Positions 11,054 through 32,758 of a stretch of DNA of 43,554 bases are shown one piece after another. The first letter of the stretch is position 1, and each line of letters begins with the position of its first letter. The notes beneath the pieces were generated by a model, which was not told the origin of the DNA, ran no database searches, and saw only the letters and a program-made list of their open reading frames with translations. The stretch comes from a virus, in IMG/VR virus record IMGVR_UViG_3300017646_000004; one strand, given 5' to 3'. Position numbers and translations under genes: made by a program.

Positions 11054-13462
11054 TCAGTTCCCCAGGATTTTCGAGAGATTGACAATGCCGACGTGTAGCA
11101 CCCGACGCGGGATCGCTGGACCTGTCACGGATGAGGGCAGCGCCACTCGCTTGGTGTAAGCAATGGCAATCGTGTTCCCGCGCAGATGACACATCGACGA
11201 GTAGTCGAAGCTGTTGGTAATCGTGACGGTGCTGGGGAGCGGATTGCCCCGAAAATCGACGTCGGTAGTCGTGTAGTTTCCCGCCAGGTTGAAGCGAGCT
11301 TGCCGGTTCAGCAGTTCGTCGTAGCTGATCTCGATACCGAGTCGGCAACGGCTTCCCTCGGGGCTCTCCGCCAAACTCTCCGGATAGCAATGCACCAGGC
11401 GGCTAGGCCGACTGTCCGAAATGCCCGAGAGTCGCAGCAGGTGGCCCGCGCAGACCGACGCAGTGTAAGGGCTGACAACGTGCGATTTGAATGTCTGCCC
11501 GGCATCTTCCCACCGGCTGATGACGCGATGCTGTCTGCCGGTGGTGGAGCTGCGCGCCGAGGAGATGATCGTGTTATCCGGCCCTTCGCACATGGAGTTC
11601 TCCATGCTTCCGAGCCCGGGAATGGCGGACATCGCCCCCGGCACCCACTCTCGCGCACCTGCGGGATCGAAGACGTAAGGGCGAATATACCAGTAGAGAT
11701 CGGTATTCGCGCCTTCGGGGTAAACCGTCATGCCCCAACCGGGAACGACCATTAGCCCGTTCGACATCGTGAAGCCGCCGCCCGGGCCGCAGCCCAGCGC
11801 GCGCCAGTCCGGGTCGTTGAGGTGATCCAGCCATGTTGCCGTGTCGGCCGTTGCGGGCAGCGTGATCGGATCGCCGGCAGCGTTGGTCCAGCTCACGCCA
11901 TCGTCGGCCGAGACGATCTCGTAGATCTCGAATGAACGTAGAGGATCATCCGGATAGTCGGCCTGGCTGACATTGCGAGACATACGCAATGTTCCGTAAT
12001 GGAACTTGAACATCATCCGGATCTCGCCGGTGATCGGATCGAAGACGAAGTTCGGTGTGGCCGTCTGCCAGAGGTTTCCGCCGGCAGCGAGCACCTGCCA
12101 CGCGCTCCAGGTCGCGTCCACCGGATCATCGCACTGCCAGAGATCGTCCGAGTAGCGGTGGATGATCACGCTGTTCTCGTAGTCAGCGGGGTTTTGGCCC
12201 GGATTGGCAGGATCGTCCGGCACTGATTTGTCGCGATTTTCGCAGGCGACATGCACTCGTTTGGTTACGGGATTGATGAAGATGGTCGGAATGTGCATCA
12301 CAGCCTTCGGCACCACATCCGGGTCGCTCGGAAGGTCGGAGGTAACCCCGATCGGGATCGCGTTGAATATCCCGGCGACATCGGCCTGCCGTTCGATGTC
12401 CTCGCGATAGGCGGAGGTAGAACCCGAAATGGAGCCGCTGGAGCCTTCGCCGCTCTGGCGAATAAAATCCAGGACATAGCCATTCGGATCGGCTGTGATC
12501 GTGAGCTTGATGAACGGATCGTCGGCATCGGGAAGATCGATGATCTCGTATTTCGCGCCGCCGGCAGCAGCACGCACCTCGGCGCTCAAGTTCTCCCCGC
12601 CCGCCCAAAAGTCGTATGCGCCGTTTGCGGCGCGAAGGCCCCACGCCGTTTCGCCATCAGGGGTGTTGAACAGCGCTGCCGCTACATAGGGCGAAAGCGG
12701 GCCGTAAGCCGGGAGGTATTCGAGGTGCTCGTTAACGTAGGCTGATGTTTCCTCTTTCAAAGTTTGCGTATCATCCCTCGCTTCCTCTGCACGGTCGGCG
12801 TCACTGGCAACCGCGGCCGCTACATCTGCCGCCGCAGTGTTGGCGGCCTCCTCTGCCCTGTCCGCTTCACCCTGAGCACGGTCAGCCTGCTCCTTGGCCT
12901 CCGAGGCATCCCCGCCAGCAGCTTCGGCAAAATCCACCAGAGGCTTGGACTGCCACAAGACTTCGAACAGGACCTGGTTGGGATCGTCGGCAACGGTCAC
13001 GCCTTCACCGGCCATATCGCCGTTGAAAATCTTCATCGCCCCCGGCGCGGCAAGCTCGTAATAGAGCATGTCGTCGGCGGTGTAGAAGCCGATGGTGTAG
13101 TTGCTCTTGACCTCTCCGTTCCAGGTAGGAAACTGCGAGACCGAAACGACAAGCGTGGACCCGCTTTCAACGGTCAGCGAAACCTCGTCGATCAGCGAGA
13201 TCGTCGTGTTCGTATCGATGGAGCCGACCTTGACCTTGATCGTCCCGGCAATCGCCAGAGGCACCTTGATGCTGCTGACCGTGCCGTATTTCTCGAACCC
13301 CTTCCCCTGCCAGCGCGTGTAGCCGCCACCGATCGTCTGGTTGGCAATGTTCGCGCCCGGCCCATAAGGGTCCTGCTCGACAGGAAGGTAAAAGTCGTCC
13401 GAGGTCAGTCCACCGGCGCGGCGGATCTTGTCCTCGTCCAGCGGGTCGGTGAAATAGTCCAT
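11054..13462 (-). CDS. Tailspike with a sialidase-like (BNR/Asp-box) beta-propeller
   Basis: 802 aa with Asp-boxes SADDGVSW and WEDAGQTF, and an Ala/Asp/Glu-rich coiled segment (ADRAEEA repeats) after the N-terminal domain. Confidence 0.7.
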   Translation of the reverse strand: MDYFTDPLDEDKIRRAGGLTSDDFYLPVEQDPYGPGANIANQTIGGGYTRWQGKGFEKYGTVSSIKVPLAIAGTIKVKVGSIDTNTTISLIDEVSLTVESGSTLVVSVSQFPTWNGEVKSNYTIGFYTADDMLYYELAAPGAMKIFNGDMAGEGVTVADDPNQVLFEVLWQSKPLVDFAEAAGGDASEAKEQADRAQGEADRAEEAANTAAADVAAAVASDADRAEEARDDTQTLKEETSAYVNEHLEYLPAYGPLSPYVAAALFNTPDGETAWGLRAANGAYDFWAGGENLSAEVRAAAGGAKYEIIDLPDADDPFIKLTITADPNGYVLDFIRQSGEGSSGSISGSTSAYREDIERQADVAGIFNAIPIGVTSDLPSDPDVVPKAVMHIPTIFINPVTKRVHVACENRDKSVPDDPANPGQNPADYENSVIIHRYSDDLWQCDDPVDATWSAWQVLAAGGNLWQTATPNFVFDPITGEIRMMFKFHYGTLRMSRNVSQADYPDDPLRSFEIYEIVSADDGVSWTNAAGDPITLPATADTATWLDHLNDPDWRALGCGPGGGFTMSNGLMVVPGWGMTVYPEGANTDLYWYIRPYVFDPAGAREWVPGAMSAIPGLGSMENSMCEGPDNTIISSARSSTTGRQHRVISRWEDAGQTFKSHVVSPYTASVCAGHLLRLSGISDSRPSRLVHCYPESLAESPEGSRCRLGIEISYDELLNRQARFNLAGNYTTTDVDFRGNPLPSTVTITNSFDYSSMCHLRGNTIAIAYTKRVALPSSVTGPAIPRRVLHVGIVNLSKILGN

Positions 13463-15122: not shown

Positions 15123-17753
15123 TCATTGCTGTGGTATTTCCTGCCGACCGTCGCCTTCATCCTGAGCGGCGGCACGGTTTGGTGATTTGGAAAGCCCTTC
15201 GCTCAGGAATTGCTGAATCGAGCGAATATCGTTCGCGATAATCGGCTCTTTCGCTGCGAGGACGCCGAGCTGCTCGGTAAAACGCCGTCCTGCCACTTCC
15301 GGGGCCGCGCTTGATTTGGCTGTTTTTGCCAGCAGGCGGGCGAAGCCGGGAGATGCCATCAGCCGGCCGGTCAGATACTGAGATCCGGCACCCAGAATGA
15401 GGGCAGCCGGATTGGCGAGATACAGCGCCACACCGGCTCCGACGTTCGAAAACGCCGCAGTTGTGGTGTTGGAGAAGTTCTCCATTGAACGGCTCGCCTT
15501 CATGCCCTCCGCGAGGGTGGCAATGTCGTTCAAATCATCCCTGAGCTGCTTGTTGCGGAACAAAGATGCCTTCGCCTGAGGCGTCATTTTGTTCCAATTG
15601 GTCAGGAAGGTAGATGGAGAGAACGCTTCCCCAGCGGCATCCTGCGCGCCGGGCGTGGCTTTACCGAGGCGATCGACAATAACCGCCCTTACCTGCCCCG
15701 CTTCCTCGGGCGTCATTTGGGCGAGAAGGCGAGATAGACGCGCATTGCCACCGGTGCCCCCCCGGGCCATCGCCTCGATGGATTGCAGGACCTGTTCACC
15801 GCCCTTGGTGCCGTCCCGCCCGACAATAGGCTGCAACACCTGATCGATGTGTTCGACGCGCTGTTTCCAGAATTCATCGGCGCGCTTGAATGTATTGGCC
15901 GCGTCTTCCCTCCCGGCCTGCCGCAGGCCAAGATCGATATCGCTCGACAGATTGTCGAGGATGCCCTTCCACATGGCCTGATCGCTGTTTGAGCGGAGCT
16001 GGCCGTTATAGACGCCGTCCGACAGTCGCGAGCGTGCATCACGCAGTCCCGTCACGCTAACGCCATTTTCAATGGCACTCTTGAAGCCCTCAAGCTCCTG
16101 AATAGTTGAGGCCGGGGCCGAAGGGTCTTCCTTCAACCGGGCAAGCCGCTGGTCGATTTCGCTGATGGTCTGGAGCGGCTTTATCTTGACCCCTCTCGCC
16201 ATAGTCCGGGCGCGTTCATAGAGGCGTGCGCCGCGCTCCGAAGTCTCGCGGGAATATCGCTGGCCGGCCGCGCGGATATTTTCGCCCGCGGCGTCGGTGG
16301 TAACAAGCTCTCCCTCACCTTCGGCAATCCGACGAACGGCCTGGCCCAACTGGCGGGTGTTCTCTTGGGCTTGACGAACAACCGGACCGGAAGAAAGGGG
16401 GGAAGCCTTTGTCCCGGACGTGACGGCCCTCGTCGCCGGGCCTCCGACATCAGCCGGAAGCACCTGGACGCCTTGGCGCGCACTGGCCAGACCCACGGGA
16501 TTAGCGCCGTGCGGGCGGAATGCGCTCAAAGCCGAATCGGCGGCCTTGTATCCCGCCAATCCGCCAGCGAGGGCACCGGCATATTCTCCACCGGGAATCC
16601 CGCTTTCCCGACCGGCATAGGAACCAGCACCGGCAAGCGCGCCCGCCGCAGTATCGCGAATAGGCGTGCGGCCGAGAACGGATGCAACCTCGCGCAGCAC
16701 CCCGGGATTCAGGATCGATGTAGCCGCGCGGGCCCCAGCGCCACCAGCCAGTGCGCCGGCACCGAACTTGTTTACCTGGCTGACAAGGGAATCTGGATCA
16801 CCTTGGGGAAGGCCCGTAGCATCACGCAGGATCTGGCCGAGATCATAGACCGTATTCCCATAACCGGTGGCGTCGTAGAATAGTTGCCCGACCGGGTTGA
16901 CCACAAGGCCCGCAACGTCACCAGCTCCTTCAACAACGTCCCCTAGCCCGATACCGAAATCACGCGCAGCATCAGCGGCGGAGCGGTAACCCAGGAAGGA
17001 ACCGCCAGTGTCCGGCGTGACCGGGCCAGATGGGGGCGGAGTTTCATCGGGAGCGGCGTTCGCGCCTTCATAAGTGATCGCCTGCCCAGCGCCGAGACCG
17101 TCGCCTTGCTCTTCCTGCTGGGAATCCGGACCTTCGATCTTATCGAGAACACCCTGGTAGGCCGCGATGACCTTATCCATGTTCGCCTGGAACTGGGCAT
17201 CGCTCTGGCTCTGATCGATTGATGCGATCGTATCACGCAGCAGGGAAAGCTCGCGTTCCGATATGGCCCCGAGCGCACCACCGGTGGGGCTCTGCTCACG
17301 CATTTTCTGCAGGCGGTCAAAGGCGGTATTCGCACCAATCGTATTGAGCAGGGCCGAAACGTCCGCCGCAGAGGTCCCGCCAATTCCCGCAGCTTGCGAT
17401 GCGCCAAAGCCGGTTGCGAACCAGCCGCTCTGCGAAAGCTCCTTCGCGCGCTTGGCCGCATCGATCACATTGCGGATCTGGCCAACGGAATCGCTGATCG
17501 CCGCGTCGGCGGCTTGCTGCTTTTGCGCTGCCTCCGCCTGCTCCTGATCGAATTTCGCCTGATCGCGGTCAGCCGCTTCCTGCCGCAGGCGCAAATTCTC
17601 AAGTTCGATAGGATCGGGCTGCTTGGGCCTGCCCTGGATGACCCCCGGCGCGGATTGCGTGGCGGGATACGCCGTCGCCGGCTGCGCGGCAGGCGCGTTG
17701 CCTGCCCCTGCGGCACCGACGATCGGAAAGGCGTCCCAAGGATCGGTTGCCAT
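15123..17753 (-). CDS. Large internal virion/ejection protein (876 aa)
   Basis: Start MATDPWDAF shares one base with the upstream TGA. Gly/Ala-rich with coiled segments. The position corresponds to the P22 gp16/gp20 class. Confidence 0.55.
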   Translation of the reverse strand: MATDPWDAFPIVGAAGAGNAPAAQPATAYPATQSAPGVIQGRPKQPDPIELENLRLRQEAADRDQAKFDQEQAEAAQKQQAADAAISDSVGQIRNVIDAAKRAKELSQSGWFATGFGASQAAGIGGTSAADVSALLNTIGANTAFDRLQKMREQSPTGGALGAISERELSLLRDTIASIDQSQSDAQFQANMDKVIAAYQGVLDKIEGPDSQQEEQGDGLGAGQAITYEGANAAPDETPPPSGPVTPDTGGSFLGYRSAADAARDFGIGLGDVVEGAGDVAGLVVNPVGQLFYDATGYGNTVYDLGQILRDATGLPQGDPDSLVSQVNKFGAGALAGGAGARAATSILNPGVLREVASVLGRTPIRDTAAGALAGAGSYAGRESGIPGGEYAGALAGGLAGYKAADSALSAFRPHGANPVGLASARQGVQVLPADVGGPATRAVTSGTKASPLSSGPVVRQAQENTRQLGQAVRRIAEGEGELVTTDAAGENIRAAGQRYSRETSERGARLYERARTMARGVKIKPLQTISEIDQRLARLKEDPSAPASTIQELEGFKSAIENGVSVTGLRDARSRLSDGVYNGQLRSNSDQAMWKGILDNLSSDIDLGLRQAGREDAANTFKRADEFWKQRVEHIDQVLQPIVGRDGTKGGEQVLQSIEAMARGGTGGNARLSRLLAQMTPEEAGQVRAVIVDRLGKATPGAQDAAGEAFSPSTFLTNWNKMTPQAKASLFRNKQLRDDLNDIATLAEGMKASRSMENFSNTTTAAFSNVGAGVALYLANPAALILGAGSQYLTGRLMASPGFARLLAKTAKSSAAPEVAGRRFTEQLGVLAAKEPIIANDIRSIQQFLSEGLSKSPNRAAAQDEGDGRQEIPQQ

Positions 17754-18121
17754 CAGAGTCCCATCCTTCGAATGATGTCGCTGCCGTAGCGCTGAGTCTT
17801 GCGACCCCATTTCGACTGATCCGAACCGCCGAAATAATACATCGCAGCCCGGCGTGGATCGCCGTTTCCATAGTCCCAGGCTTCCCGAACGGCGGCCTCG
17901 GTGATTGCGTCCTGATACCGCCTGGCCTCAGCGCTGGTGCCGCGCATAAGGTCAGGGCGGTAAGGAAGCCCGATGCGAGCGGCCAATGCCCTCGTCGTAT
18001 CCGGCATGACCTGGCCTATCCCCATGGCACCGGATCCTTCGGCATTGGGCACGCCGTAACGGCCGCCGGATTCCTGCCCGATGATCGCGCGCTTGAACGA
18101 GCGATAATCATTGGGGAAACC
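17753..18121 (-). CDS. Lytic transglycosylase (SLT) domain segment without its own start codon
   Basis: FKRAIIGQESGGRYGVPNAEGSGAMGIGQVMPDT is an SLT catalytic signature. The upstream part of track ORF 17753..18280 is Arg-rich nonsense. It is probably joined to 18108..18905 by a +1 shift. Confidence 0.7.
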   Translation of the reverse strand, partial: GFPNDYRSFKRAIIGQESGGRYGVPNAEGSGAMGIGQVMPDTTRALAARIGLPYRPDLMRGTSAEARRYQDAITEAAVREAWDYGNGDPRRAAMYYFGGSDQSKWGRKTQRYGSDIIRRMGL

Positions 18122-18905
18122 CGCCAGCGGCGTTGCCACCGCTGCCTCCCGGAACCACTCGAATATTGCCGTTCGGATCGATGAACCGCGTGCCGGGCGG
18201 CAGGCTCCGCGCCTGCTCCACGCTCTGCACCTGCACGGGCGCATCCTGTGAGCCGACATAGCCGGATACCGCGCTAGCATTGCGGGTATCCACCAGCGTG
18301 CCGCCCTCGGGAATGACCTGATAGTGAGGTTCGGTCGCGCTGATGAAATCCTTCACCATCCCCGCTTTCGCGAGCGCGCCCTGCAAAGCCTGTTCGCTGT
18401 ATTGCCCCGCCTGTTGCGCAAGGCCCCGAATTCCAAGGCGCTCGCCTTCGACCACGGCGGCATCCCAAGCGGCCGCGCGCTGTTCGGGCGGCAAGCGGGA
18501 GATGTTCAGCGCGGCATTGCCAATGTAATCGGCGCTCTGTTTGATCTGGTCTTTCTGCGCTGTGCTAAGCTTCTGCCACGCGTTAATGTCTATCCCGGCG
18601 AGTTGCCCCAGCGCGGCTGCATCACCCTGGGCCGCTCGCTGCTGCAAATCCGCCTGAATCTGCTGCATCTGAGCTTTTTGCATCTGCGCCTGCCGCGAGG
18701 CTTCACGGTCCTGCAATTGAAGCCCGAGGGCCGGATTGTATTTCGCTACTTCCGCCACGCCTTCCGGGGTGGGATTGGTGACATAGGCCGCCAGCGCGCT
18801 TTCGGTGCGCCGGTTCCTCGCATCCTCCCGGCCTTTGTCGAAGGCGCTCAGAATGCTCTGGCCGATACCTGCCGTGGCGTTGGTGAGGGGGGTATAATCA
18901 ACCAT
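18108..18905 (-). CDS. Ejection-protein N-terminal part (frame upstream of the SLT domain)
   Basis: Start MVDYTPLT. Gln-rich coiled region. Ends ...GGNAAGGFPQ-stop, inside the GGGTTTCCCC site. Confidence 0.55.
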   Translation of the reverse strand: MVDYTPLTNATAGIGQSILSAFDKGREDARNRRTESALAAYVTNPTPEGVAEVAKYNPALGLQLQDREASRQAQMQKAQMQQIQADLQQRAAQGDAAALGQLAGIDINAWQKLSTAQKDQIKQSADYIGNAALNISRLPPEQRAAAWDAAVVEGERLGIRGLAQQAGQYSEQALQGALAKAGMVKDFISATEPHYQVIPEGGTLVDTRNASAVSGYVGSQDAPVQVQSVEQARSLPPGTRFIDPNGNIRVVPGGSGGNAAGGFPQ

Positions 18906-19056: not shown

Positions 19057-19823
19057 CACAGGCTCCCCAGGACGCCGCCGATCGTGGAGCCGATGCCGCT
19101 CCACATGTTCGCGGTGTTCGTGCCCTTGGCTATTGCGGCATTTGCATTCGCATTGCCTGCACCCACCTGAAGATTGGCGATATTGCTGCCGTAGTTCGAA
19201 TTGAGGTTCGACAGCGCTGTCCCGTAATTGCTGGTCAGACCGGAAAGCGCGTTGCCGTAGTTCGTGCTGAGGTTCGCCAGAGACGAGGACGCCGAGAGCC
19301 CCGTGTTCTGCTGGCCGGTCAGATAGCCCATGTAGTTGCTGAATTCGTTGCTGGCGAAGTTCTGGCCGTATTCGGTCAGGGCCTTCTGCGCGGCACCCGA
19401 TTGCAACAGGCCGTTCGCCGCGTAGTTGGAGTTGACCGCGTCGTAGCCCTCCTGGAGCCGGGACTGATAGCCGGTCGAATCCTTGTAGGTATCGAACGCT
19501 GCCTGCTGCGCCTCGGTCGATCCGGTCAGCCCCAGCAGGGCATTGATCTGCGACGTCGCTGCGGTCCCACCCGAGGCATAGGGCGATAGCGCGCTCGATG
19601 CCGTCTCATACGCGCTGTTCTGATAGTCGATCGACTGGTCCAGCGCGCTTTTCAGGGCGGAGGAAGACGTGTTATAGGAGTCCGTGAGCGTGCCCTGCGC
19701 CGCTGTAATCGCGGCCTGCTGTGCGGCATTCGCCTTGTCCACGGCCTTATTGGAGGAGCTTGCGCCCAGCAGGCTACCGGCGACGCCGGCAACCGCGCCA
19801 ATAGCTGACGTAATCCCGACCAT
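19056..19823 (-). CDS. Ser/Asn/Ala-rich internal virion protein
   Basis: 255 aa with an N-terminal hydrophobic segment and short repeats (SxNYGxALSxL three times). Confidence 0.5.
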   Translation of the reverse strand: MVGITSAIGAVAGVAGSLLGASSSNKAVDKANAAQQAAITAAQGTLTDSYNTSSSALKSALDQSIDYQNSAYETASSALSPYASGGTAATSQINALLGLTGSTEAQQAAFDTYKDSTGYQSRLQEGYDAVNSNYAANGLLQSGAAQKALTEYGQNFASNEFSNYMGYLTGQQNTGLSASSSLANLSTNYGNALSGLTSNYGTALSNLNSNYGSNIANLQVGAGNANANAAIAKGTNTANMWSGIGSTIGGVLGSL

Positions 19824-20266
19824 CAGGATAGCTCCTTGATGAATATATGTTCGCTGGGAATGTAGCCGTTCATTCGATACAATCTTTCAAGGGCTGCGGA
19901 TCGCATGTGATGTTCACATGCCATATTAATGGTCCGCGCCCCGAGATTGCGGGCGGCCAACTCTGCCTTTTCCCGTAGAAGTCGTCCGGCGCTACTGCCC
20001 GGATCGGTCCACCAGAAAAGCTCCGTCGCAGTTAACACATTGCGGTTGAAGTGCCAAGGGTGAACTATAACGCCGATCATTGCCGACAGGTCTTCGGGGA
20101 CAAGGCAGATATGATCTGCGATCAACCCCTTGAGAAGCTCAGTGCAACTTTGCTCGTCATAAGGAACATCGATCCTCGACCATGCGATATCGATGAACCT
20201 CTTCCCCATTTCGAGAAGCCGGGGGATGTCCGTCTCGGTCGCAGACCGAATGACGCTGTCGCTCAT
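19823..20266 (-). CDS. GNAT-family N-acetyltransferase
   Basis: 147 aa with a GNAT-like core (SAGRLLREKAELAARNLGARTINM...RLYRMNGY). Visibly lower GC than the flanking virion genes. Confidence 0.7.
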   Translation of the reverse strand: MSDSVIRSATETDIPRLLEMGKRFIDIAWSRIDVPYDEQSCTELLKGLIADHICLVPEDLSAMIGVIVHPWHFNRNVLTATELFWWTDPGSSAGRLLREKAELAARNLGARTINMACEHHMRSAALERLYRMNGYIPSEHIFIKELS

Positions 20267-20607
20267 GAGAGGACTTCGATCAGCCTCAAATCGTCGATCA
20301 GCTGCTTCACGCGCTGCGCCAGTTGCTCGACATCAACCGTGCTCGTGGCGAAGGTCGCCCTGCTTCCCGTTCCGCTTGCGGTGCCCCAGCCCGGCGTCTG
20401 GCCCTTCTGGACATAGTCTGCCAGCATCGCTGCAACATCGGTCGAAAGCGTGTCCACGGCATCGGCCAGGGCGATCACTTGATCCTCTACGCCGGAGATG
20501 TATTCGAGCTGCGCCTGCCATTTCTTCTGAAAGGCGATTGTCGGCCTGCCGTCCTTGTCGCAAATCGGTTCGCTCGCGAGAAGGAGAAGGCCCGTGCGCA
20601 ACATCAC
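20263..20607 (-). CDS. Short tail needle/plug protein (P22 gp26-like C-terminus)
   Basis: QTPGWGTASGTGSRATFA...VEQLAQRVKQLIDDL resembles the gp26 tail RQTGWTAATGTANKGVFDA...IQAIANALI. It follows the gp10-like gene, as in P22. Confidence 0.5.
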   Translation of the reverse strand: MMLRTGLLLLASEPICDKDGRPTIAFQKKWQAQLEYISGVEDQVIALADAVDTLSTDVAAMLADYVQKGQTPGWGTASGTGSRATFATSTVDVEQLAQRVKQLIDDLRLIEVLS

Positions 20608-22139
20608 ACGCCCCCCGGATCGGTTAGCAGCACGTCATCGATATCGGGATCGGTCAGGATCGTCGTCGTATCATCGGGATCGGAGATATACGTGTCGTCG
20701 CTTCCCGGCCCGACGCCGCCGCCTCTTGCCCCGGGCCATCTGCTGCGACCGGTCAGCCGTTCGTTGTAATATGCCCCTGATACCCTGAACGGAACGGGGT
20801 CGGTCACCCTGATCTCGAACAGCGCCCCCGGAGCATCGAACATGCCGAGCGCGCGCCACTGGACCGACTTGCGATAAGCGCCTTGCTCTCCGAGTCCGGT
20901 CTGCCGCCACTCGGACCATGTCTGCCCGCCATCGCGGGTGTGTCGCAGTTCGACGATCGGATTGGCGAAGGTCCCCACGACATATCCGGTCTGACCGGGA
21001 TTGGTGCGGAGCGAGACATTGTTGATCCTGATCGCATCACCGATAACGACCAGGCCGCACCGGAACATGCGCTCGACTTCGGCCCCGAGATCACTGTCAC
21101 CGCTGAATACCAGCAGGTATCCGTCATCCTTCGATCCGAATAGCGGGCTGTCGCTCCCCGGAATATTGATCGCGGATCCACCAAGAAAGCCATCACGACC
21201 ATATGTGCGCTGTTCGGACCATTCGCGGGTCTGCGCATCGAACAGCAGATCGGTGTTATCCAGGCGGATGCGCAGGAATTCATGGCCTTCGAAGAAATAG
21301 CTGTCCGCCAGGCACGTCTGGGACGCGGAGATGATCTCCTGCACACCGGCATCGCTGATCGGGAGCGGAACCGCACCGCCGTTCTGGTAGACGATGTTGC
21401 CGGGCGAGACCCAGGCGAATGTGCTGTCCCACAATGTGATGCAGCCTGTATCCCTGACACCCTTGGTGAACACCCTGCCGATCGTCGGGGCCCAGGGCGC
21501 GTCGTCGTCCCCGGTCGGGCCGTGGAATTCGATCGTATCGACCCCGGCAAGAATAAGGTGGCTTTCCCACACCACGATATCCACCAGTTTGTCCGGCTCG
21601 CTTTCGGCGCTGGCGTAGTCGAGCCCATCGATCACGATGTCTCCGTTTTCGTCCAGCATATTGGCAAGGGGCTTGGTCCAATAATAATGATGGGTCCCGG
21701 CCCGCAGGAAGATGAACCGGCCGCCTTGCTCCGCGACCGCAGTGACAAGCGCATCGTCGGGGAACGCCACTGCCCGATAGGTCTCGCCATCGTAGAAGCT
21801 GACATTCTCGCCGGCGGTCGCGATCACGCCGATTTCATTGCCTGCGACGGAAGGATCTCCGCCTCCGGTCAACTCGCCCGCCTCGTTGGCTCCGACATAC
21901 ATCGATGACCCCGAGATCGCCACGATCTGGCCACCGACCACCCCATCTGCGCGATACAGCTTGCGGACCGGACCTTCGCCCAGCAGGACATCTGTTCGAT
22001 CAAGGCCGGGGCGCGATTGAAGCGCGAACTGCGTGGGCTCCGTGATCGCTTCCTCGGGGAACATGTTGACCAGAGGAAGCCGCGGCAAATCGCCCCGGGA
22101 GCGCCTGATCGTGCCGGGAACCAGCGAGAGGGCAGGCAT
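20604..22139 (-). CDS. P22 gp10-like tail hub / packaged-DNA stabilisation protein
   Basis: LPLVNMFPEE...SRPGL, TIEFHGPTG, FFEGHEFLRIRL and FEIRVTDPVPFRVSG parallel P22 gp10 blocks (YLPVNML, TIEYFSLTG, RFDSHELLIIHL, FKLRVITKSPVTLSG). Confidence 0.7.
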   Translation of the reverse strand: MPALSLVPGTIRRSRGDLPRLPLVNMFPEEAITEPTQFALQSRPGLDRTDVLLGEGPVRKLYRADGVVGGQIVAISGSSMYVGANEAGELTGGGDPSVAGNEIGVIATAGENVSFYDGETYRAVAFPDDALVTAVAEQGGRFIFLRAGTHHYYWTKPLANMLDENGDIVIDGLDYASAESEPDKLVDIVVWESHLILAGVDTIEFHGPTGDDDAPWAPTIGRVFTKGVRDTGCITLWDSTFAWVSPGNIVYQNGGAVPLPISDAGVQEIISASQTCLADSYFFEGHEFLRIRLDNTDLLFDAQTREWSEQRTYGRDGFLGGSAINIPGSDSPLFGSKDDGYLLVFSGDSDLGAEVERMFRCGLVVIGDAIRINNVSLRTNPGQTGYVVGTFANPIVELRHTRDGGQTWSEWRQTGLGEQGAYRKSVQWRALGMFDAPGALFEIRVTDPVPFRVSGAYYNERLTGRSRWPGARGGGVGPGSDDTYISDPDDTTTILTDPDIDDVLLTDPGGV

Positions 22140-22140
22140 C

Positions 22141-22836
22141 TCAGTAGCTCCACCAGGGCCCTTCCACGGGCTCCATCGTGTAGGAAGCTGGGCGATAGCT
22201 ATCGAGCATTTCCTGCTCCAGCAGGCCCGCCCGGATCGCCAGCTCTTGCGCGGGCTGCACCCCGAAAATCCCCGCGCAGCGGATGGCGAGATTGCTGTAT
22301 ACGGTCTCCAGCAGCTCGTCGGGGATATCCACTTCCTGCGTGGCATCGGTGATCGCGTCCATCTTGCGATCGATATCGAGATGATAGGTCACAGGCCTGT
22401 TCGGAACGGGCCAGACATAGAGCGTGACCGCCTTGGCAGAGGGCTCCACGTAATACATCGTGGGATTTCCCGGTGAATCCTTGCGGGGCAGGATGCGATA
22501 GTCATCCCGCTCCCAGCGCTGCATCGGCCTGTCATTCCATTGGTCGATCTGGCAACGCGCCCCGTTCACTTCGCGCACATAGTCCGGGAGGGTGAAGCTC
22601 ATCACATTGAGCGGCTGATCGATGGAGATCGTCTCCTGCTTCCAGATCACGCCTTTGAGCTGCCAGGACTTCACCATCCCATTGAGGCGCAGCAGGCACT
22701 TTTGAAGCTCGATATCCTCGGGTTGCTCGCCCAAGGGGAGAATGGCGTTTTCTTCCAGTGCGGTCGTGACGATATCCCGGGCGGTCATCCTGAACTCGGT
22801 CGTTCCGCTGGTTCCGGTCGCAATGCTCGCCATCAC
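22141..22836 (-). CDS. Head-to-tail adaptor candidate (gp4 position)
   Basis: 231-aa ORF directly upstream of the gp10-like gene. The assignment is by synteny only. Confidence 0.45.
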   Translation of the reverse strand: MMASIATGTSGTTEFRMTARDIVTTALEENAILPLGEQPEDIELQKCLLRLNGMVKSWQLKGVIWKQETISIDQPLNVMSFTLPDYVREVNGARCQIDQWNDRPMQRWERDDYRILPRKDSPGNPTMYYVEPSAKAVTLYVWPVPNRPVTYHLDIDRKMDAITDATQEVDIPDELLETVYSNLAIRCAGIFGVQPAQELAIRAGLLEQEMLDSYRPASYTMEPVEGPWWSY

Positions 22837-24303: not shown

Positions 24304-25218
24304 TTAGCCCGAGCCCGGATTGCCGAAGACACCGCGCCAGTCGGCCACGCCCGGAACATAACGCTCCGTCGCTTTGGCCTTGGCGTTCTCGGTGTCGAAG
24401 TCGTCGTCCTTCTTGAACTCCAACGCGCGGCGCTGGAACGAGAGAAGTCCGTTGCCGACATCGGTGGTCAGGAACCACGCGTCCAGGTCTTCGAGCCAGG
24501 GATCGACCACCACCTTCTTGATGCGTCCGGTCACCCGAAGCGCATTGACGTTGTTGGTGTTGGTCGTGTCCGTTGCCGAACCGGACTGGAGTTCGCTTTC
24601 CAGGATGCGGATCGCGTTCGCCCAGTTCGACGGATGGACCACCAGCGTTGCCGCCTGTGCCCCGATCTTGATCCCGCGCGCGTTCTCCATGAGCATGATC
24701 TGCGTCACGGCATCTTCGAGCGAGGTTTCCGACAGATCCGCAGCGGTCAGCAGATTGCTCTGCAAGCCACCAATGGTCGGGTGAGAGGCCGAGAAGATCG
24801 GCACCCCATCCCCGCCCAGGAACGTGGTGAAGCCGCGATTCAGCACATTCGCATGCACGATGCACTTGGTCGCGTTCATCGAGCGGGCCAGCTCGCGCGA
24901 GTAGCTTTCGCTCACCTGCCGATACTGGTTGTCCTCGATGGCTTCCCGCGTCACGATATAGCCGAGGCCGTAGACCTCGTTCGTGAAGCGCGTCTTGTAG
25001 CCTTCCCGGAAGTCGTCATACTTGATCGACGCACCTTCGGCCTTCTTCGGGGCGAGCCCGAGGCCAACGGTTTCCGCGATTTCCTCATAGGCCTTGTCGC
25101 TCGTTTCCATCTGGAAATACTCGCGATAAGCCTTGGGTGCCTCCTTGTAGCGCGCACCGAACCAGAGCTTGATGCCGGGCCAAAGCGCGGAGGGATGATT
25201 GGAACGAGTGGTAGTCAT
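24304..25218 (-). CDS. Major capsid protein (HK97-fold, lambda gpE / Mu gpT-like)
   Basis: 304 aa. LWPGIKLWFGARYKE...FQMETSDKAYEEIAETVGLG...EGASIKYDD...YGLGYIVTREAIEDNQY looks like the gpE/gpT class. Position is after the scaffold. Confidence 0.7.
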   Translation of the reverse strand: MTTTRSNHPSALWPGIKLWFGARYKEAPKAYREYFQMETSDKAYEEIAETVGLGLAPKKAEGASIKYDDFREGYKTRFTNEVYGLGYIVTREAIEDNQYRQVSESYSRELARSMNATKCIVHANVLNRGFTTFLGGDGVPIFSASHPTIGGLQSNLLTAADLSETSLEDAVTQIMLMENARGIKIGAQAATLVVHPSNWANAIRILESELQSGSATDTTNTNNVNALRVTGRIKKVVVDPWLEDLDAWFLTTDVGNGLLSFQRRALEFKKDDDFDTENAKAKATERYVPGVADWRGVFGNPGSG

Positions 25219-27377: not shown

Positions 27378-27597
27378 CGAGACTTTCCCAATCCTCGAAC
27401 TTGGCTTCGGGTATTTCCAGATAGCAGTCAGCCCGCGTGCGAGCTTCGGCCAGGAACTCTTTGTCGAGATTGCCTTTCCATGCAGCATCGGCCCACAGGG
27501 CTTTCTGCGCTTCGGCATGGCGGCGCATGCGGTCCATGACCCACTCGGTCACGGGGTGCTGCAGCCAGTCGGCAAACATCTCTTCGGTGATCGGCAT
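27361..27597 (-). CDS. Hypothetical protein (78 aa) downstream of portal
   Basis: Track ORF. The start shares one base with the portal stop. Confidence 0.45.
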   Translation of the reverse strand: MPITEEMFADWLQHPVTEWVMDRMRRHAEAQKALWADAAWKGNLDKEFLAEARTRADCYLEIPEAKFEDWESLDDTDD

Positions 27598-29684
27598 CAG
27601 GCGTTCTCCGCCGCGCCATGCTCAAGGCCCTGGATCGCGGCGTGCGCCACTTCCTTGGCCTGCTCGAATTTCAGCTTCTCATCGTCCAGAACCGTGTCGG
27701 CACCGGCCTTCTGCGCCAGCGCGATGTTTCTGACCGCTTCGCTTTCCTTCTTCTTCGCATCGGCCACCAGATTGGCCAGCTGGGCCTCGTCGATCGGGCT
27801 TGGCGGCTGTGGCTGCGGCGCAGGCAGGATCTTCTCGATGTCCTCGATATCTGCCGCCTCGAACGCGCGGCGAAGGATTTCGCGGGGATCACCGCCGACT
27901 GCGGCAACCTGCTCGAACGTGCCCATCAGGAACTGCGCCCGACTGAGCCGCTGCATCTTCGTCACGCTGGTCGGATCGCTGACCGGCCGGATATCGAAGT
28001 CCGATGCGTTGAAATCAGCCTCGATATTCGCTTCTGGATCGTCCAGAAGCTCGACGTAATCCTTCTGCGCCTGCTCATCCGCATACTTGCCGATGTTGTT
28101 GAAAAGCAGCGTGAACTCGTCCTTGAATCCGCGATATACCCGCTTGTAGATCGCGGTGAACACCTGCAGGCCCTGTTCGATCATGGCGAGCGTCGTGCCC
28201 ACCTGCCCCGTGTTCTTCGCGTCTCCGGTCAGCACATCCTTGATGGAAGCAATCTGCTCCGCTGCGCCCAGGATCAGCTCAAGCAGCTGGAACATCACCG
28301 GCGAGAGATTGGGCAGCGTCCGCTCGAATATCCCATCGCGCATAACCGCGCCCTGGACATCGACCGTCTTGTATTCGCCGGGCCGGAAAATGAGCTTGGA
28401 ACTCTGGCCCCTGCCCTGGATCCTCAGGCCAGAGGCGATGAACCCGCCGCCTGCCGCAATCGCGCTGTTGGCGTCGATCATCTGGTTGATGATCGTGTTG
28501 ATGACCTGGCCATACTGATCCAGCAGATGGGCAAGCCCGATGGAATAGAACTTGCCCTCGGGATGGGGCAGGAACTCAACCTTGGTGTAGAACTTCCGCC
28601 GCTCGATATAGGCAAGGCCATCGCCAACGAGCTTGACCTGATCCGGGCCGAAGTCGGGCACCACACGCAGCAGCTGCTTCGACTTGTGATCGATCGTCAC
28701 GATATACGGTTCGGGAACGCCATCTCCATCCAGATCGAAGTGGCACTGCTGTTCGATCAGCATCCGGCAGTCATGTTCTTCGGGATCGAGGACGATCGGC
28801 CGGTATTTGCCCACGCGGATGTCGCGCAGGATATGGATCGGATAGACCCCGTGGATTTCCTCGGTGATCTGCGGCGCTTCCTCCAACGACCGGGCGTCAT
28901 TGTTCACCACCAGATTCAGCGCCGGTATGAAGCACGATTTATGCTCCCTGCTGTAATACCAGGTCTTCCGGAAGGCACAGCCCACGGCAGGCAGCTGGAA
29001 CAGCATGGAATCCGTGTCCGCCTCCCACCCGTCCATGCGGTAGAAGATCGTGGTGTTCATGTAGTCGCGGACACGGGCCGCGCGCTTGGCCTTGGCTCCC
29101 GGCGGCCTCTGCCATGCGGGCTCGGGCTGGGCTCCCTGCGGCAAGGGCTGCATGCCCTGCGGCGTGACCACCATCGGACCCTGCTGCGTCATCGCTACCG
29201 GCATACCGCCCAGCACAAACACAGGCTGGCCGTTCTGGTCCATCACCGGCATGCCATTGTCGCTGCCCACGACCTTGACCGATACCGCCTCGTCGCCCTT
29301 CACAAGGGCCGGATAGGCACGGGCGTTGAACTGCATCACCGCATAGGGCAGCAGCGGATAGTGGACGTTCGAAGCACGTGGCCACGGGAAGTTCTTCTCC
29401 CCCCAATCGCACTTGGCCATGTCTTCCAAGGCGCGCTTGGCCACCGTCTCCCAATCGGTGCGGGAGCGCTTGTCCTCCTCGTAGTTCTCGATGACCTCGT
29501 CGGTCAGCCTGGCAAGGACAGTGTCCTCCACCAGATCAGAGATATCGCCCTCAGCCTCGGCGAACTGCATCAGCACAGCAAGCGCATCCAGAGTGGACAC
29601 GGCCTCAAGCTGCTCTTCTTCGGGCGAGGATATAGTGGCGACGAACTCGGGCGTTTCAGGATCGACTATGGGAGCTGATGCCAT
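27597..29684 (-). CDS. Portal protein
   Basis: 695-aa ORF immediately downstream of terL. Its size and position fit a P22-class portal. No independent motif check was possible. Confidence 0.75.
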   Translation of the reverse strand: MASAPIVDPETPEFVATISSPEEEQLEAVSTLDALAVLMQFAEAEGDISDLVEDTVLARLTDEVIENYEEDKRSRTDWETVAKRALEDMAKCDWGEKNFPWPRASNVHYPLLPYAVMQFNARAYPALVKGDEAVSVKVVGSDNGMPVMDQNGQPVFVLGGMPVAMTQQGPMVVTPQGMQPLPQGAQPEPAWQRPPGAKAKRAARVRDYMNTTIFYRMDGWEADTDSMLFQLPAVGCAFRKTWYYSREHKSCFIPALNLVVNNDARSLEEAPQITEEIHGVYPIHILRDIRVGKYRPIVLDPEEHDCRMLIEQQCHFDLDGDGVPEPYIVTIDHKSKQLLRVVPDFGPDQVKLVGDGLAYIERRKFYTKVEFLPHPEGKFYSIGLAHLLDQYGQVINTIINQMIDANSAIAAGGGFIASGLRIQGRGQSSKLIFRPGEYKTVDVQGAVMRDGIFERTLPNLSPVMFQLLELILGAAEQIASIKDVLTGDAKNTGQVGTTLAMIEQGLQVFTAIYKRVYRGFKDEFTLLFNNIGKYADEQAQKDYVELLDDPEANIEADFNASDFDIRPVSDPTSVTKMQRLSRAQFLMGTFEQVAAVGGDPREILRRAFEAADIEDIEKILPAPQPQPPSPIDEAQLANLVADAKKKESEAVRNIALAQKAGADTVLDDEKLKFEQAKEVAHAAIQGLEHGAAENA

Positions 29685-29686
29685 CG

Positions 29687-30976
29687 CTAATATCCTGTCG
29701 CCTCGTTGACATCGTCGTAAGATGAGTAGTCATCCTCATCTCGCGGGTATTCCGGCTCTTCGTAGAACACGCACATGAGTCCAAATGCATCGGCACCGTG
29801 ACTTGCCCAATCGTGTTCGGGCCCCAGTCCGATATTGCGCGTTTCGTCGATCTTTTCGTGATACCAGCCCAGCGCGGTCAGCCCGGCCTCGCACTTGCCT
29901 GCGTCGAACCACATGCGCGGGAACAGCCTGCGCCCCGCCTCGATCCGCTTGAGCGCCGCGCCCTTGCCCTGGTTCTTAACCGTCCTGACCTGAAACCCGG
30001 CCTGCCTGATATGGTCCTCGAACCGCACGGCACTGACCGCATCGTGTTGGGCCGCGTCATGCGGCAGGACACATATGGCCGTCCCATAGCCCTTGGACCG
30101 CAGCCATTCGAGATGCGCAGCCAGCGGTTGCCTGGTGGCCTCGTAGTAATCGACGACCTTGATCTGCTGGCCGACGAACTGGCAGATCCAGATCGCGGTC
30201 GCATCCCGGACGCCGATGTCCCAGAACGCCCAATACTGCATCAGCGGATCGGCCGGCAAGATCCCGACGCGACCATCCAGCTTCGCCTGGGCGATATGGC
30301 GGGCGTAGTATGCCCCGTCGCTTACCGTGACGTAGCCACCTTCCCAGATGTGGTCATACTGGTCAGGCTGCTGGCGAAGGCAGTCTTGCCGCTCCTGCTC
30401 CAACTCGGCGGGGAACCAAGGATTGTCATTCCAGTTGGCGGTGACCAGAACCGAGCCGGTCGGCCTCGCATCGCCACAGAACATCTTGTCCACTGCGTCG
30501 CTCTTGAGGCGCGGATTCCAAGTGAACCACAGTTCCGAGCCCGGCGCGCGGATAGTCGGACGCAGGAGATTGAGGCTGCGGGAGGAAAGCGTCTGAGCTT
30601 CTTCCACCCAAGCCCGCTTGAAGCCCTCCAGAGACTTGATGCTCTCCGCCGTGTGGTCCTGCATCCCCTGGAAGATGATGACCCCATCTCCGGGCGTTTG
30701 GATGCGATCGGTGAACACCTTGAAGCCATCGGCCTCGCCCAAGCCGAACTCAGTCAGCTTGGCCTCCAGCAGGCGCTTGGCGGAGTCTTTCAGGCTCTTC
30801 TGGATCTCGCGGATGCAGACCGAAAGAAGCCCGCGCTCATACAGGCTGTCATCGATCAGCGCCCCGGCGCGATCATGCGACTTACCGGAGCCGCGCCCTC
30901 CCTTTACCCCCTTGTATCGTGCTGGTTGATAGAGTGGCTTGAATACCTCAGCCGTTGGTATTCGAAGGGCTGACAT
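29687..30976 (-). CDS. terL: Terminase large subunit
   Basis: Walker A GGRGSGKS, WVEEAQ (Walker B-like), and C-terminal nuclease-like HDWASHGADAF. Confidence 0.9.
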   Translation of the reverse strand: MSALRIPTAEVFKPLYQPARYKGVKGGRGSGKSHDRAGALIDDSLYERGLLSVCIREIQKSLKDSAKRLLEAKLTEFGLGEADGFKVFTDRIQTPGDGVIIFQGMQDHTAESIKSLEGFKRAWVEEAQTLSSRSLNLLRPTIRAPGSELWFTWNPRLKSDAVDKMFCGDARPTGSVLVTANWNDNPWFPAELEQERQDCLRQQPDQYDHIWEGGYVTVSDGAYYARHIAQAKLDGRVGILPADPLMQYWAFWDIGVRDATAIWICQFVGQQIKVVDYYEATRQPLAAHLEWLRSKGYGTAICVLPHDAAQHDAVSAVRFEDHIRQAGFQVRTVKNQGKGAALKRIEAGRRLFPRMWFDAGKCEAGLTALGWYHEKIDETRNIGLGPEHDWASHGADAFGLMCVFYEEPEYPRDEDDYSSYDDVNEATGY

Positions 30977-32209: not shown

Positions 32210-32758
32210 TCAAGCGGTCAACTGTTTCAGCACGTGGATAGCCAGATCGAGCCGGGTCTGATCCATCGGCTCTACGACCATGGCCTTGCTGCGCTGGGCG
32301 AAGCAGAGGCGATCGATCCAGTCGGGGCCGCAATCGGGATTGATGTCGATCACCAGTTGATAGAACGGCTTGCGGTAGCGTGCGCCCTGGCTACGGACGA
32401 AATCCAGCGTTTCATTCAGCCACTCCTCGCGGCGCTTTGCCTTCGCGCTGTCCATGCTGATCACGCTGCCCGAGGTCTTGTCCCCGATGGCACATGTGAT
32501 CCGCCCATGGGTGTAGGTGGCCCAATAGGCTGCGAAGATTGAGCGCGCCATGTCCAGCATCGCCTTGGCTTCGTTGCCCTCCCCCAGAAGCCCCGAACGG
32601 TATGCGCGGCCGATCGCATCGCATCCGTCCTGTCCGTAGAGCGTCTGCATCAGCTGGGCGTGATCGCTGCCCTTGACGCGCCGGCCGATACCGACACGCG
32701 AGAGGCGGCCGTTCTTCTCCCGCTTCCCCTGTTTTCTCTTTCTGCCTTTGGTGGACAT
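32210..32758 (-). CDS. Hypothetical protein (182 aa, basic N-terminus)
   Basis: Start MSTKGRKRKQGK shares one base with the helicase stop. Confidence 0.5.
   Translation of the reverse strand: MSTKGRKRKQGKREKNGRLSRVGIGRRVKGSDHAQLMQTLYGQDGCDAIGRAYRSGLLGEGNEAKAMLDMARSIFAAYWATYTHGRITCAIGDKTSGSVISMDSAKAKRREEWLNETLDFVRSQGARYRKPFYQLVIDINPDCGPDWIDRLCFAQRSKAMVVEPMDQTRLDLAIHVLKQLTA

Follow-up and report, generated by a model that had tools for sequence, protein, structure and literature searches.

A conserved hairpin cassette and putative +1 frameshifting at the end of a phage ejection-protein gene

How can a wall-degrading enzyme domain be expressed from the end of an ejection-protein gene whose reading frame it does not share? 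This question is raised by IMGVR_UViG_3300017646_000004, an IMG/VR virus record of 43,554 nucleotides (nt) and 60% G+C, the whole of which we call the window. Its gene P0001, for the helical N-terminal domain of a putative ejection (internal virion) protein, stops just where an SLT lytic transglycosylase domain carries on in the +1 frame. The original prediction, made from the letters of the DNA, offered two explanations: a one-base error in the run of four cytosines (C4) at the junction, or programmed +1 ribosomal frameshifting. The comparative evidence described here supports the second, and we consider it probable, judging from sequence comparisons, that ribosomes really do shift frame within this gene.

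The frame junction and its homologues

On the minus strand, the zero-frame open reading frame (ORF) of 265 amino acids (aa) runs from an ATG at 18905 to the TGA at 18110-18108 and ends in ...GGC GGG TTT CCC CAA TGA, that is, in AAGGFPQ and stop, confirming the sequence and translation first given for it. Across the junction the +1 frame reads ...CTG GCG GGT TTC CCC AAT GAT TAT CGC... (LAGFPNDYRSFKRAIIGQESGG) and stays open until the TGA at 17755-17753. As had been noted, both frames encode Gly-Phe-Pro over GGGTTTCCCC (18122..18113, minus strand), with the zero-frame UGA two codons after UUU. The SLT domain does carry on in the +1 frame: this segment matches Pfam SLT PF01464 (E=1.1e-4, 22.2 bits, cut-off 21.3), contains GQESGG with the catalytic Glu of the E-S motif, and is also matched by several PHROG endolysin and transglycosylase families. 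The further claim that the domain lacks a start codon holds only in part. The +1 frame has a GTG at 18139-18137, 5 nt after GGGAGG, and an ATG at 18280; the GTG is used by gene callers in two other assemblies, giving a 128-aa call, but neither codon is conserved among relatives. The -1 frame was also considered and rejected: there an ATG overlaps the stop (CAATGA), but this frame closes after ~25 codons.

Joined across the shift, the two parts make a conceptual trans-frame product of 383 aa. In the window, a slip on UUU_C and a slip on CCC_C would give this same product, with GGFPNDYR at the junction. The original prediction had both Phe and Pro transfer RNAs (tRNAs) re-pairing after the slip; the UUU_C site that would serve tRNA-Phe is conserved in relatives, whereas the CCC_C site, and with it the C4 run, is not.

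We used the 383-aa protein, with its two parts joined between GGF and P, as a search query. Among its matches are proteins of 378-400 aa encoded by a single ORF, which cover 92-99% of the query. Two of these, P0004 and P0005, are 47% identical to it at 99% coverage, and their alignments are gapless at the junction (GGFPNDYRSFKRAIIGQESGG in the window against GGFPVSFYQFKRAIIGQETGG in P0004; over the stretch that crosses GGFP, GGSGGNAAGGFPNDYRSFKRAIIGQESGG against GGSGGNVTGGFPVSFYQFKRAIIGQETGG). An AlphaFold model of the fused P0004 is of low confidence (predicted local distance difference test 60, predicted template modelling score 0.31); its N-terminal part is helical, and a weak stretch at 265-308 covers the linker together with the beginning of the enzyme domain. 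The same search returned many proteins of 252-283 aa that end 1-7 residues after the matching G-x-F motif. For ten of these short homologues we examined the DNA, and all ten have an enzyme domain in the +1 frame (one of two kinds of SLT, or Peptidase_M15_3); this frame has no stop across the junction, and at the conserved Phe the DNA reads N-TTT-C.

The junctions of relatives differ widely (TTT CTC CGT TGA; TTT CGC CCC TAA; TTT CAA CGG TAA; TTT CCC TAG), and a shared homopolymer error is therefore impossible. Five more split loci from IMG/VR and metagenome scans are likewise all +1, one of them with an unrelated N-terminal domain. The +1 arrangement recurs in 67 distinct relatives, always as +1, and is far beyond chance. 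The window's own sequence is repeated identically over 2 kb around the junction in two further assemblies from different samples. Among cultured phages, a nucleotide search with the region and with the consensus cassette described below gave no match, and tblastn with the conceptual fused proteins gave enzyme-domain matches only, except for the phages Pam1 and VSN-002.

A conserved cassette at the junction

Comparison of the split genes reveals a consensus order of GGAGG, an adjoining hairpin of 8 base pairs (bp), a constant 5-nt spacer, and TTT with C or T as the next base. The GGAGG and the hairpin had not been noticed in the original prediction. The whole signal occupies 45 bases of the window (Table 1). 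We found 67 unique split cassettes, all of them +1 (61 with UUU_C and 6 with UUU_U), and two in-frame fusions; none of the 69 has UUC, and none has its downstream domain in the -1 frame. Counted in codons after UUU, the zero-frame stop follows after 0 in 5 split cassettes, 1 in 12, 2 in 27, 3 in 14, 4 in 2, 7 in 6 and 10 in 1 (n = 67), so that 58 of the 67 stop within three codons. Where the end of the +1 ORF lies on the contig, this ORF is 75-130 codons long. The conserved candidate slip site is UUU_C (or UUU_U). None of the cassettes that came from the protein-similarity search lacks GGAGG, which formed no part of that search and is always encoded GGA GGY. Among Phe codons in the window's genes there are 50 TTT and 239 TTC (TTT is 17%), and GGA accounts for 117 of 814 Gly codons. 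Such codon usage speaks for selection acting on the nucleotide sequence.

The hairpin carries a GNRA tetraloop, mostly GCAA, with a few UCCG or other loops, and its mean folding energy is -13.6 kcal/mol. The linker amino acids co-vary with stem pairing kept (G-S..A-T, S-G..A-A, A-G..A-S). Across 49 unique cassettes all eight pairs change on both sides, giving 28 distinct stems; the covariation score of 0.746, compared with 0.328 in shuffles, was reached by 0 of 500 shuffles, although this alignment had been pre-filtered for 7 paired positions and the unfiltered scans provide the unbiased figure. Shifting the partner columns abolishes the pairing signal.

These unfiltered data come from two pattern scans of IMG/VR, which fixed only GGAGG, the loop, the first two spacer bases (GG, or RG in the second scan) and TTY, leaving free the hairpin arms, the Phe wobble base and all downstream sequence. 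In the first scan 43 of 54 matches had six of six complementary arm positions, where chance would give ~0.3% per match; in the second, seven of seven were complementary in 18 of 49. All 61 well-paired matches have TTT then C or T, never TTC, and 60 of them have a zero-frame stop 0-10 codons on together with a long +1 ORF, the remaining one being an in-frame fusion. The poorly paired matches show none of these features. In the minimum-free-energy fold of the window's own RNA (18095-18165, minus strand), GGGAG also pairs with UCCCC after UUU and encloses the hairpin; relatives do not show this extra pairing, which seems tied to the C4 run of the window.

Carriers of the cassette have N-terminal domains that are 25-50% identical or unrelated, and several types of enzyme domain. 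The +1 products comprise three kinds of SLT, several Peptidase_M15_3 and three further kinds without a Pfam assignment. Judged from these sequences, the cassette is a marker of a module boundary across several ejection-protein families.

Some further observations concern the domains on either side. At least four unrelated N-terminal domains precede the cassette (L032, L035, L036, L037, L043, L045, L099, L122, L123), and an upstream domain with the motif NDTVNDY..DPVV.IPLPG...Y.GPRSG is recurrent. The +1 domain in L036, L077 and L083 (NNPGALRVPGS.QFQ.F...QQGIQ.QEA.LGRY...) has no Pfam match, and may be an undescribed wall-acting or other cargo domain. Only a single true prophage cassette came out of scans of genome contigs and of 401 genomes that belong to the same order as an Erythrobacter assembly.

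In the two in-frame fusions, L089 (7 contigs) and L010, the full cassette is kept and it is the +1 frame that closes, after 6 and 3 codons respectively. L010 (TTT CCC GAC CCA CTG AAG) shares its M15 module with the split cassette L073 (TTT CCC GGA CCC CAC TAA, read in +1 as TTC CCG GAC CCC ACT AAG), and the two differ by one base just after the slip site, which shows how easily fused and split forms could interconvert. The cultured Sphingopyxis phage VSN-002 (L146 2185-3357, MZ127829.1) has an in-frame fusion with a peptidase domain, a different linker and no cassette; the fusion is annotated as a DNA/protein translocase, and its N-terminal likeness to the window's protein was not compared. 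On the sequences, several lineages are predicted to carry the enzyme as an extension at the C-terminus of such an ejection protein.

A cultured phage with the cassette is Pseudanabaena phage Pam1 (ON014753.1), which has the same gene order. Its Pam1_14 gene ends in GGA GGT CAG GCG GCT CCC CCG CCT GCT GGC TTT TCG GAC TGG CTC TAA, comprising GGAGG, a 7-bp hairpin (-11.6 kcal/mol), the 5-nt spacer and UUU_U. The 269-aa Pam1_14, a homologue of P0001, was detected in virions by mass spectrometry (PMC9382816). After it, the +1 frame encodes a peptidase domain of ~100 aa (L145 4480-4793; about 11201-11515 of ON014753.1), like the +1 peptidase domain of many IMG/VR cassettes; the annotation of Pam1 covers only the last 49 aa of its domain, as hypothetical protein Pam1_15. 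By eye alone, this domain has H..D and HWH motifs resembling a zinc (LAS-type) peptidase. The conceptual trans-frame protein would run from Pam1_14 through ...PPPAGF into RTGSKPKLTNNAQALVKR...HFVLGE. The Pam1 genome paper does not mention a frameshift; Pam1's authors report only an HHpred probability of 0.88 to a P22 translocase.

Frameshifting weighed against other explanations

We propose that most ribosomes would read GGG UUU CCC CAA UGA and release the 265-aa helical protein, and that a fraction would slip by +1 while tRNA-Phe occupies UUU in the P site, re-pairing with UUC. UUU-pyrimidine sites are prone to +1 shifts in E. coli. A slip from CCC to CCC would be equally possible in the window. 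Shifted ribosomes would continue in the +1 frame and make the 383-aa protein with its C-terminal SLT lytic transglycosylase. Both forms of the ejection protein, plain and enzyme-armed, would then be present in the virion, and those with the enzyme would cut peptidoglycan as the genome is ejected. The hairpin probably stimulates the shift, by refolding behind the ribosome and possibly together with pairing between GGAGG and 16S ribosomal RNA (rRNA); its end 5 nt before UUU fits the role of a stimulator next to the E site. One could speculate that, with the intervening 20 nt looped out by the hairpin, GGAGG keeps its pairing to the 16S rRNA. We infer the ribosomal shift at this site, its rate included.

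Several observations weigh against this proposal, as does the pre-filtering of the covariation alignment. With its +1 GTG 5 nt after GGGAGG, the window could possibly make a separately initiated 128-aa SLT protein, and in all cassettes whose loop is AGCAAT an ATG follows GGAGG at 11 nt. The distance from GGAGG down to UUU, 25 nt, is too great for prfB-type action on linear messenger RNA (mRNA). The codon after UUU is not conserved, and no common slow-to-decode A-site codon is evident. The cassettes share ancestry, so that the constant +1 is partly inherited and does not amount to 67 independent events. Lastly, ORF15 was not flagged in the Pam1 virion mass-spectrometry table, which is weak evidence because the search database held only ORF15 of the +1 segment.

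The main rival explanation is that there are simply two genes, with GGAGG as a true Shine-Dalgarno (SD) sequence and the enzyme starting inside the cassette, in the window at the GTG, as a free 128-aa SLT protein whose gene overlaps that of the ejection protein by ~30 nt. Besides the called GTG and the ATG of the AGCAAT-loop cassettes, an ATG, GTG or TTG lies 4-12 nt after GGAGG in 25 of the 67 cassettes, and a start that is part of the cassette would make the constant +1 frame follow automatically. In the other 42 there is no start so spaced, though, and in 16, Pam1, L002, L026 and L029 among them, there is no +1 ATG, GTG or TTG at all from GGAGG to 30 nt past TTT. The candidate starts that do occur are buried in a hairpin of -12 to -16 kcal/mol, and two genes would leave the invariant UUU_Y unexplained. 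The fused homologues P0004-P0019, L010, L089 and VSN-002 (the last with its N-terminal part uncompared, as above) further show the enzyme working as a C-terminal extension. We regard separate initiation as unlikely.

The cassette might instead serve mainly another purpose, as a recombination joint, an element of mRNA processing or stability, or a pause site, leaving the +1 offset as a tolerated by-product and the enzyme expressed otherwise or hardly at all. The N-terminal domains before it are of at least four unrelated types and the enzyme domains after it of at least six kinds, as would be expected of a recombination joint, and it persists in L010 and L089, where the enzyme is already in frame. 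Yet the +1 ORFs remain intact over their 75-130 codons, with domains recognisable across very divergent phages; the stems diverge with pairing kept, which indicates selection on structure and speaks against recombination by sequence homology; the preferred loop types, GNRA and UNCG, indicate an RNA element; and a recombination joint needs neither UUU over UUC nor a zero-frame stop a few codons on. This explanation seems to us distinctly improbable. The one-base error in the C4 run that was originally suggested, or a recent inactivating mutation there, would make the true gene an in-frame fusion or the window's copy a pseudogene. Homopolymer runs are indeed error-prone, in-frame fused homologues exist, and L010 and L073 are separated by that single base, but three assemblies from different samples agree exactly in sequence, and 66 other distinct cassettes share the +1 layout, most of them without any C run and one of them in the finished genome of a cultured phage, Pam1. 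An error or pseudogene is thus very unlikely indeed. A phage-encoded suppressor tRNA or quadruplet decoding was excluded, as there is no tRNA gene in the window, and transcriptional slippage was rejected, as the only conserved run is T3.

Programmed +1 frameshifting therefore remains the explanation that we prefer. A broader proposal, which we put forward tentatively and with somewhat more doubt than confidence, is that GGAGG, a GNRA hairpin, 5 nt and UUU_Y together form a natural, portable, 5'-acting +1 stimulator. It would be the first equivalent of the synthetic refolding upstream hairpin to occur naturally in bacteria or phages. With GGAGG bound to the anti-SD and the hairpin looped out, the effective spacing from SD to P site might be prfB-like. 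The cassette would be a standard joint in phages of at least two bacterial phyla, providing a fixed ratio of plain to armed subunits and swappable wall-degrading modules.

Genomic setting and known systems

By appearance, the window looks like the genome of a short-tailed, P22-like phage (Table 1). The N-terminal domain of P0001 has no Pfam, PHROG or PDB sequence match. P0001 lies between the gp7-like gene and the gene for the 876-aa internal protein, whose ATG overlaps the SLT stop (TGATG), and by this gene order it occupies the position of a middle ejection protein; one of the P22 gp20/T7 gp15 type would be expected between gp7-like and gp16-like genes. A 147-aa ORF between the gp10-like and gp7-like genes (19823-20266, minus strand) is GNAT-like by eye, with no Pfam match recorded for it in L030; Pam1 has an annotated acetyltransferase (Pam1_11) there.

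Table 1. Features of the window, with positions on the 43,554-nt stretch
Feature	Position	Strand	Remarks
Primase/helicase	32758-35271	minus	
Large terminase	29687-30976	minus	
Portal	27597-29684	minus	
Major head protein	24304-25218	minus	
Adaptor	22141-22836	minus	
P22 gp10-like protein	20604-22346	minus	
P22 gp7-like ejection protein, two genes upstream of P0001	19056-19823	minus	PF25688 E=7.6e-6, below its cut-off; phrog_598 'DNA ejection' E=2e-26
P0001, zero-frame ORF, 265 aa, putative helical N-terminal domain of ejection (internal virion) protein	18108-18905	minus	ends GGSGGNAAGGFPQ and stop
GGGAGG, Shine-Dalgarno-like, within Pro-Gly-Gly codons (CCG GGA GGC)	18145..18150	minus	
Predicted hairpin CAGCGGUG-GCAA-CGCCGCUG	18125..18144	minus	8 bp (one G-U pair), GNRA tetraloop, -14.1 kcal/mol
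+1-frame GTG inside 5' arm of hairpin	18137..18139	minus	start of the rival 128-aa SLT protein
5-nt spacer GCGGG, hairpin to slip codon	18120..18124	minus	
UUU_C candidate slip site	18116..18119	minus	P-site tRNA-Phe could move from UUU (18119-18117) to UUC (18118-18116)
CCCC run, possible alternative slip site (CCC_C)	18113..18116	minus	window-specific; not conserved in relatives
Zero-frame stop TGA, two codons after UUU	18108..18110	minus	
+1-frame SLT segment, 121 aa	17753-18118	minus	FPNDYRSFKRAIIGQESGG...RRMGL and stop
876-aa internal virion/ejection protein	15123-17753	minus	phrog_2534 'released from the phage upon host infection', E=2.7e-11

One practical consequence concerns annotation, as +1 enzyme domains of this kind are truncated, unnamed or missed in public gene calls, whereas a 34-nt pattern detects such sites directly. 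We observed +1 enzyme ORFs called from whatever Met or Val was available (L002 3863-4144; L023 1186-1521; L026 1682-2017; L030 2767-3153); the L002 SLT call starts at an internal Met after the catalytic Glu, and the L030 call at a GTG inside the hairpin. The arrangement also suggests how podoviruses could control the number of wall-cutting enzymes per virion, with Pam1 as a cultured system for study.

To our knowledge, very few +1 recoding sites are known in bacteria and phages, namely prfB, a few Listeria phage genes and scattered cases. If ribosomes do shift at the cassette, it would define a widespread new family of bacterial and phage +1 recoding sites, and the first with a conserved upstream hairpin signature. 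E. coli prfB, which encodes release factor 2 (RF2), is like the site proposed here in that a P-site tRNA slips by +1 on a NUU_U-type site, stimulated by an upstream duplex near the E site, and 5 of the 67 split cassettes read UUU_UGA with the stop directly in the A site, like CUU_UGA. The differences are that the slip codon is CUU (Leu) in prfB and UUU (Phe) here; that the stop here usually lies 1-3 codons downstream, the window reading UUU_CCC_CAA_UGA; that an SD:anti-SD helix lies 3 nt upstream in prfB, whereas here an intramolecular 8-bp hairpin would lie 5 nt upstream and GGAGG ends 25 nt upstream; and that prfB serves autoregulation, whereas here two structural products would be made.

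Influenza A PA-X and the amalgaviruses offer a second comparison, as both use UUU_CGN. This is the reported +1 frameshift motif of amalgaviruses (PMC5052127), and would involve the same re-pairing of tRNA-Phe from UUU to UUC; CGN follows UUU in 26 of the 67 split cassettes. Amalgaviruses are eukaryotic viruses translated by 80S ribosomes, whereas the cassette has its conserved upstream hairpin and GGAGG, and the window itself has CCC after UUU. In PA-X, frameshifting is at a very low level and has no evident stimulator (PMC5009743). Phages are known to reach the same C-terminal extension by a -1 shift, a +1 shift or an in-frame fusion (PMC5009743). Among them, Listeria phage PSA (and A118/A500) resembles the case proposed here in making a short and a C-terminally extended product of structural genes by +1 slippage. 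In PSA, a proline codon slips beside a downstream pseudoknot or stop, and a capsid or tail protein is extended; here, the slip would be on a Phe codon with an upstream structure, placing an enzyme on an ejection protein.

Synthetic hairpins are a further comparison. A stable hairpin placed beside the E site raises +1 frameshifting on E. coli 70S ribosomes, and has been proposed to mimic an internal SD duplex (PMC6321510). Like the cassette, these refolding constructs carry a stable GC-rich hairpin immediately upstream of the shift site (PMC6321510, PMC3639245); they differ in being engineered and studied in vitro on CUU_UGA without RF2. In the literature we found no natural bacterial or phage example of a refolding hairpin next to the E site, and no description of this GGAGG-hairpin-UUU_Y cassette. 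If our reading is true, a mechanism so far known from engineered constructs alone could be put to a natural test in these phages. As to function, T7 gp16, with its N-terminal transglycosylase, and cyanophage A4 gp28, with lytic transglycosylase and M23 domains, likewise bear a wall-cutting domain on an internal or ejection protein and use it at genome entry (PMC8954989, PMC12002296). In A4, two alternating gp28 copies were modelled differently, and enzyme domains were described for only one of them. In T7 and A4 these are ordinary in-frame domains, whereas here the enzyme would be carried on the C-terminus of a putative small middle ejection protein and reached through a change of frame.

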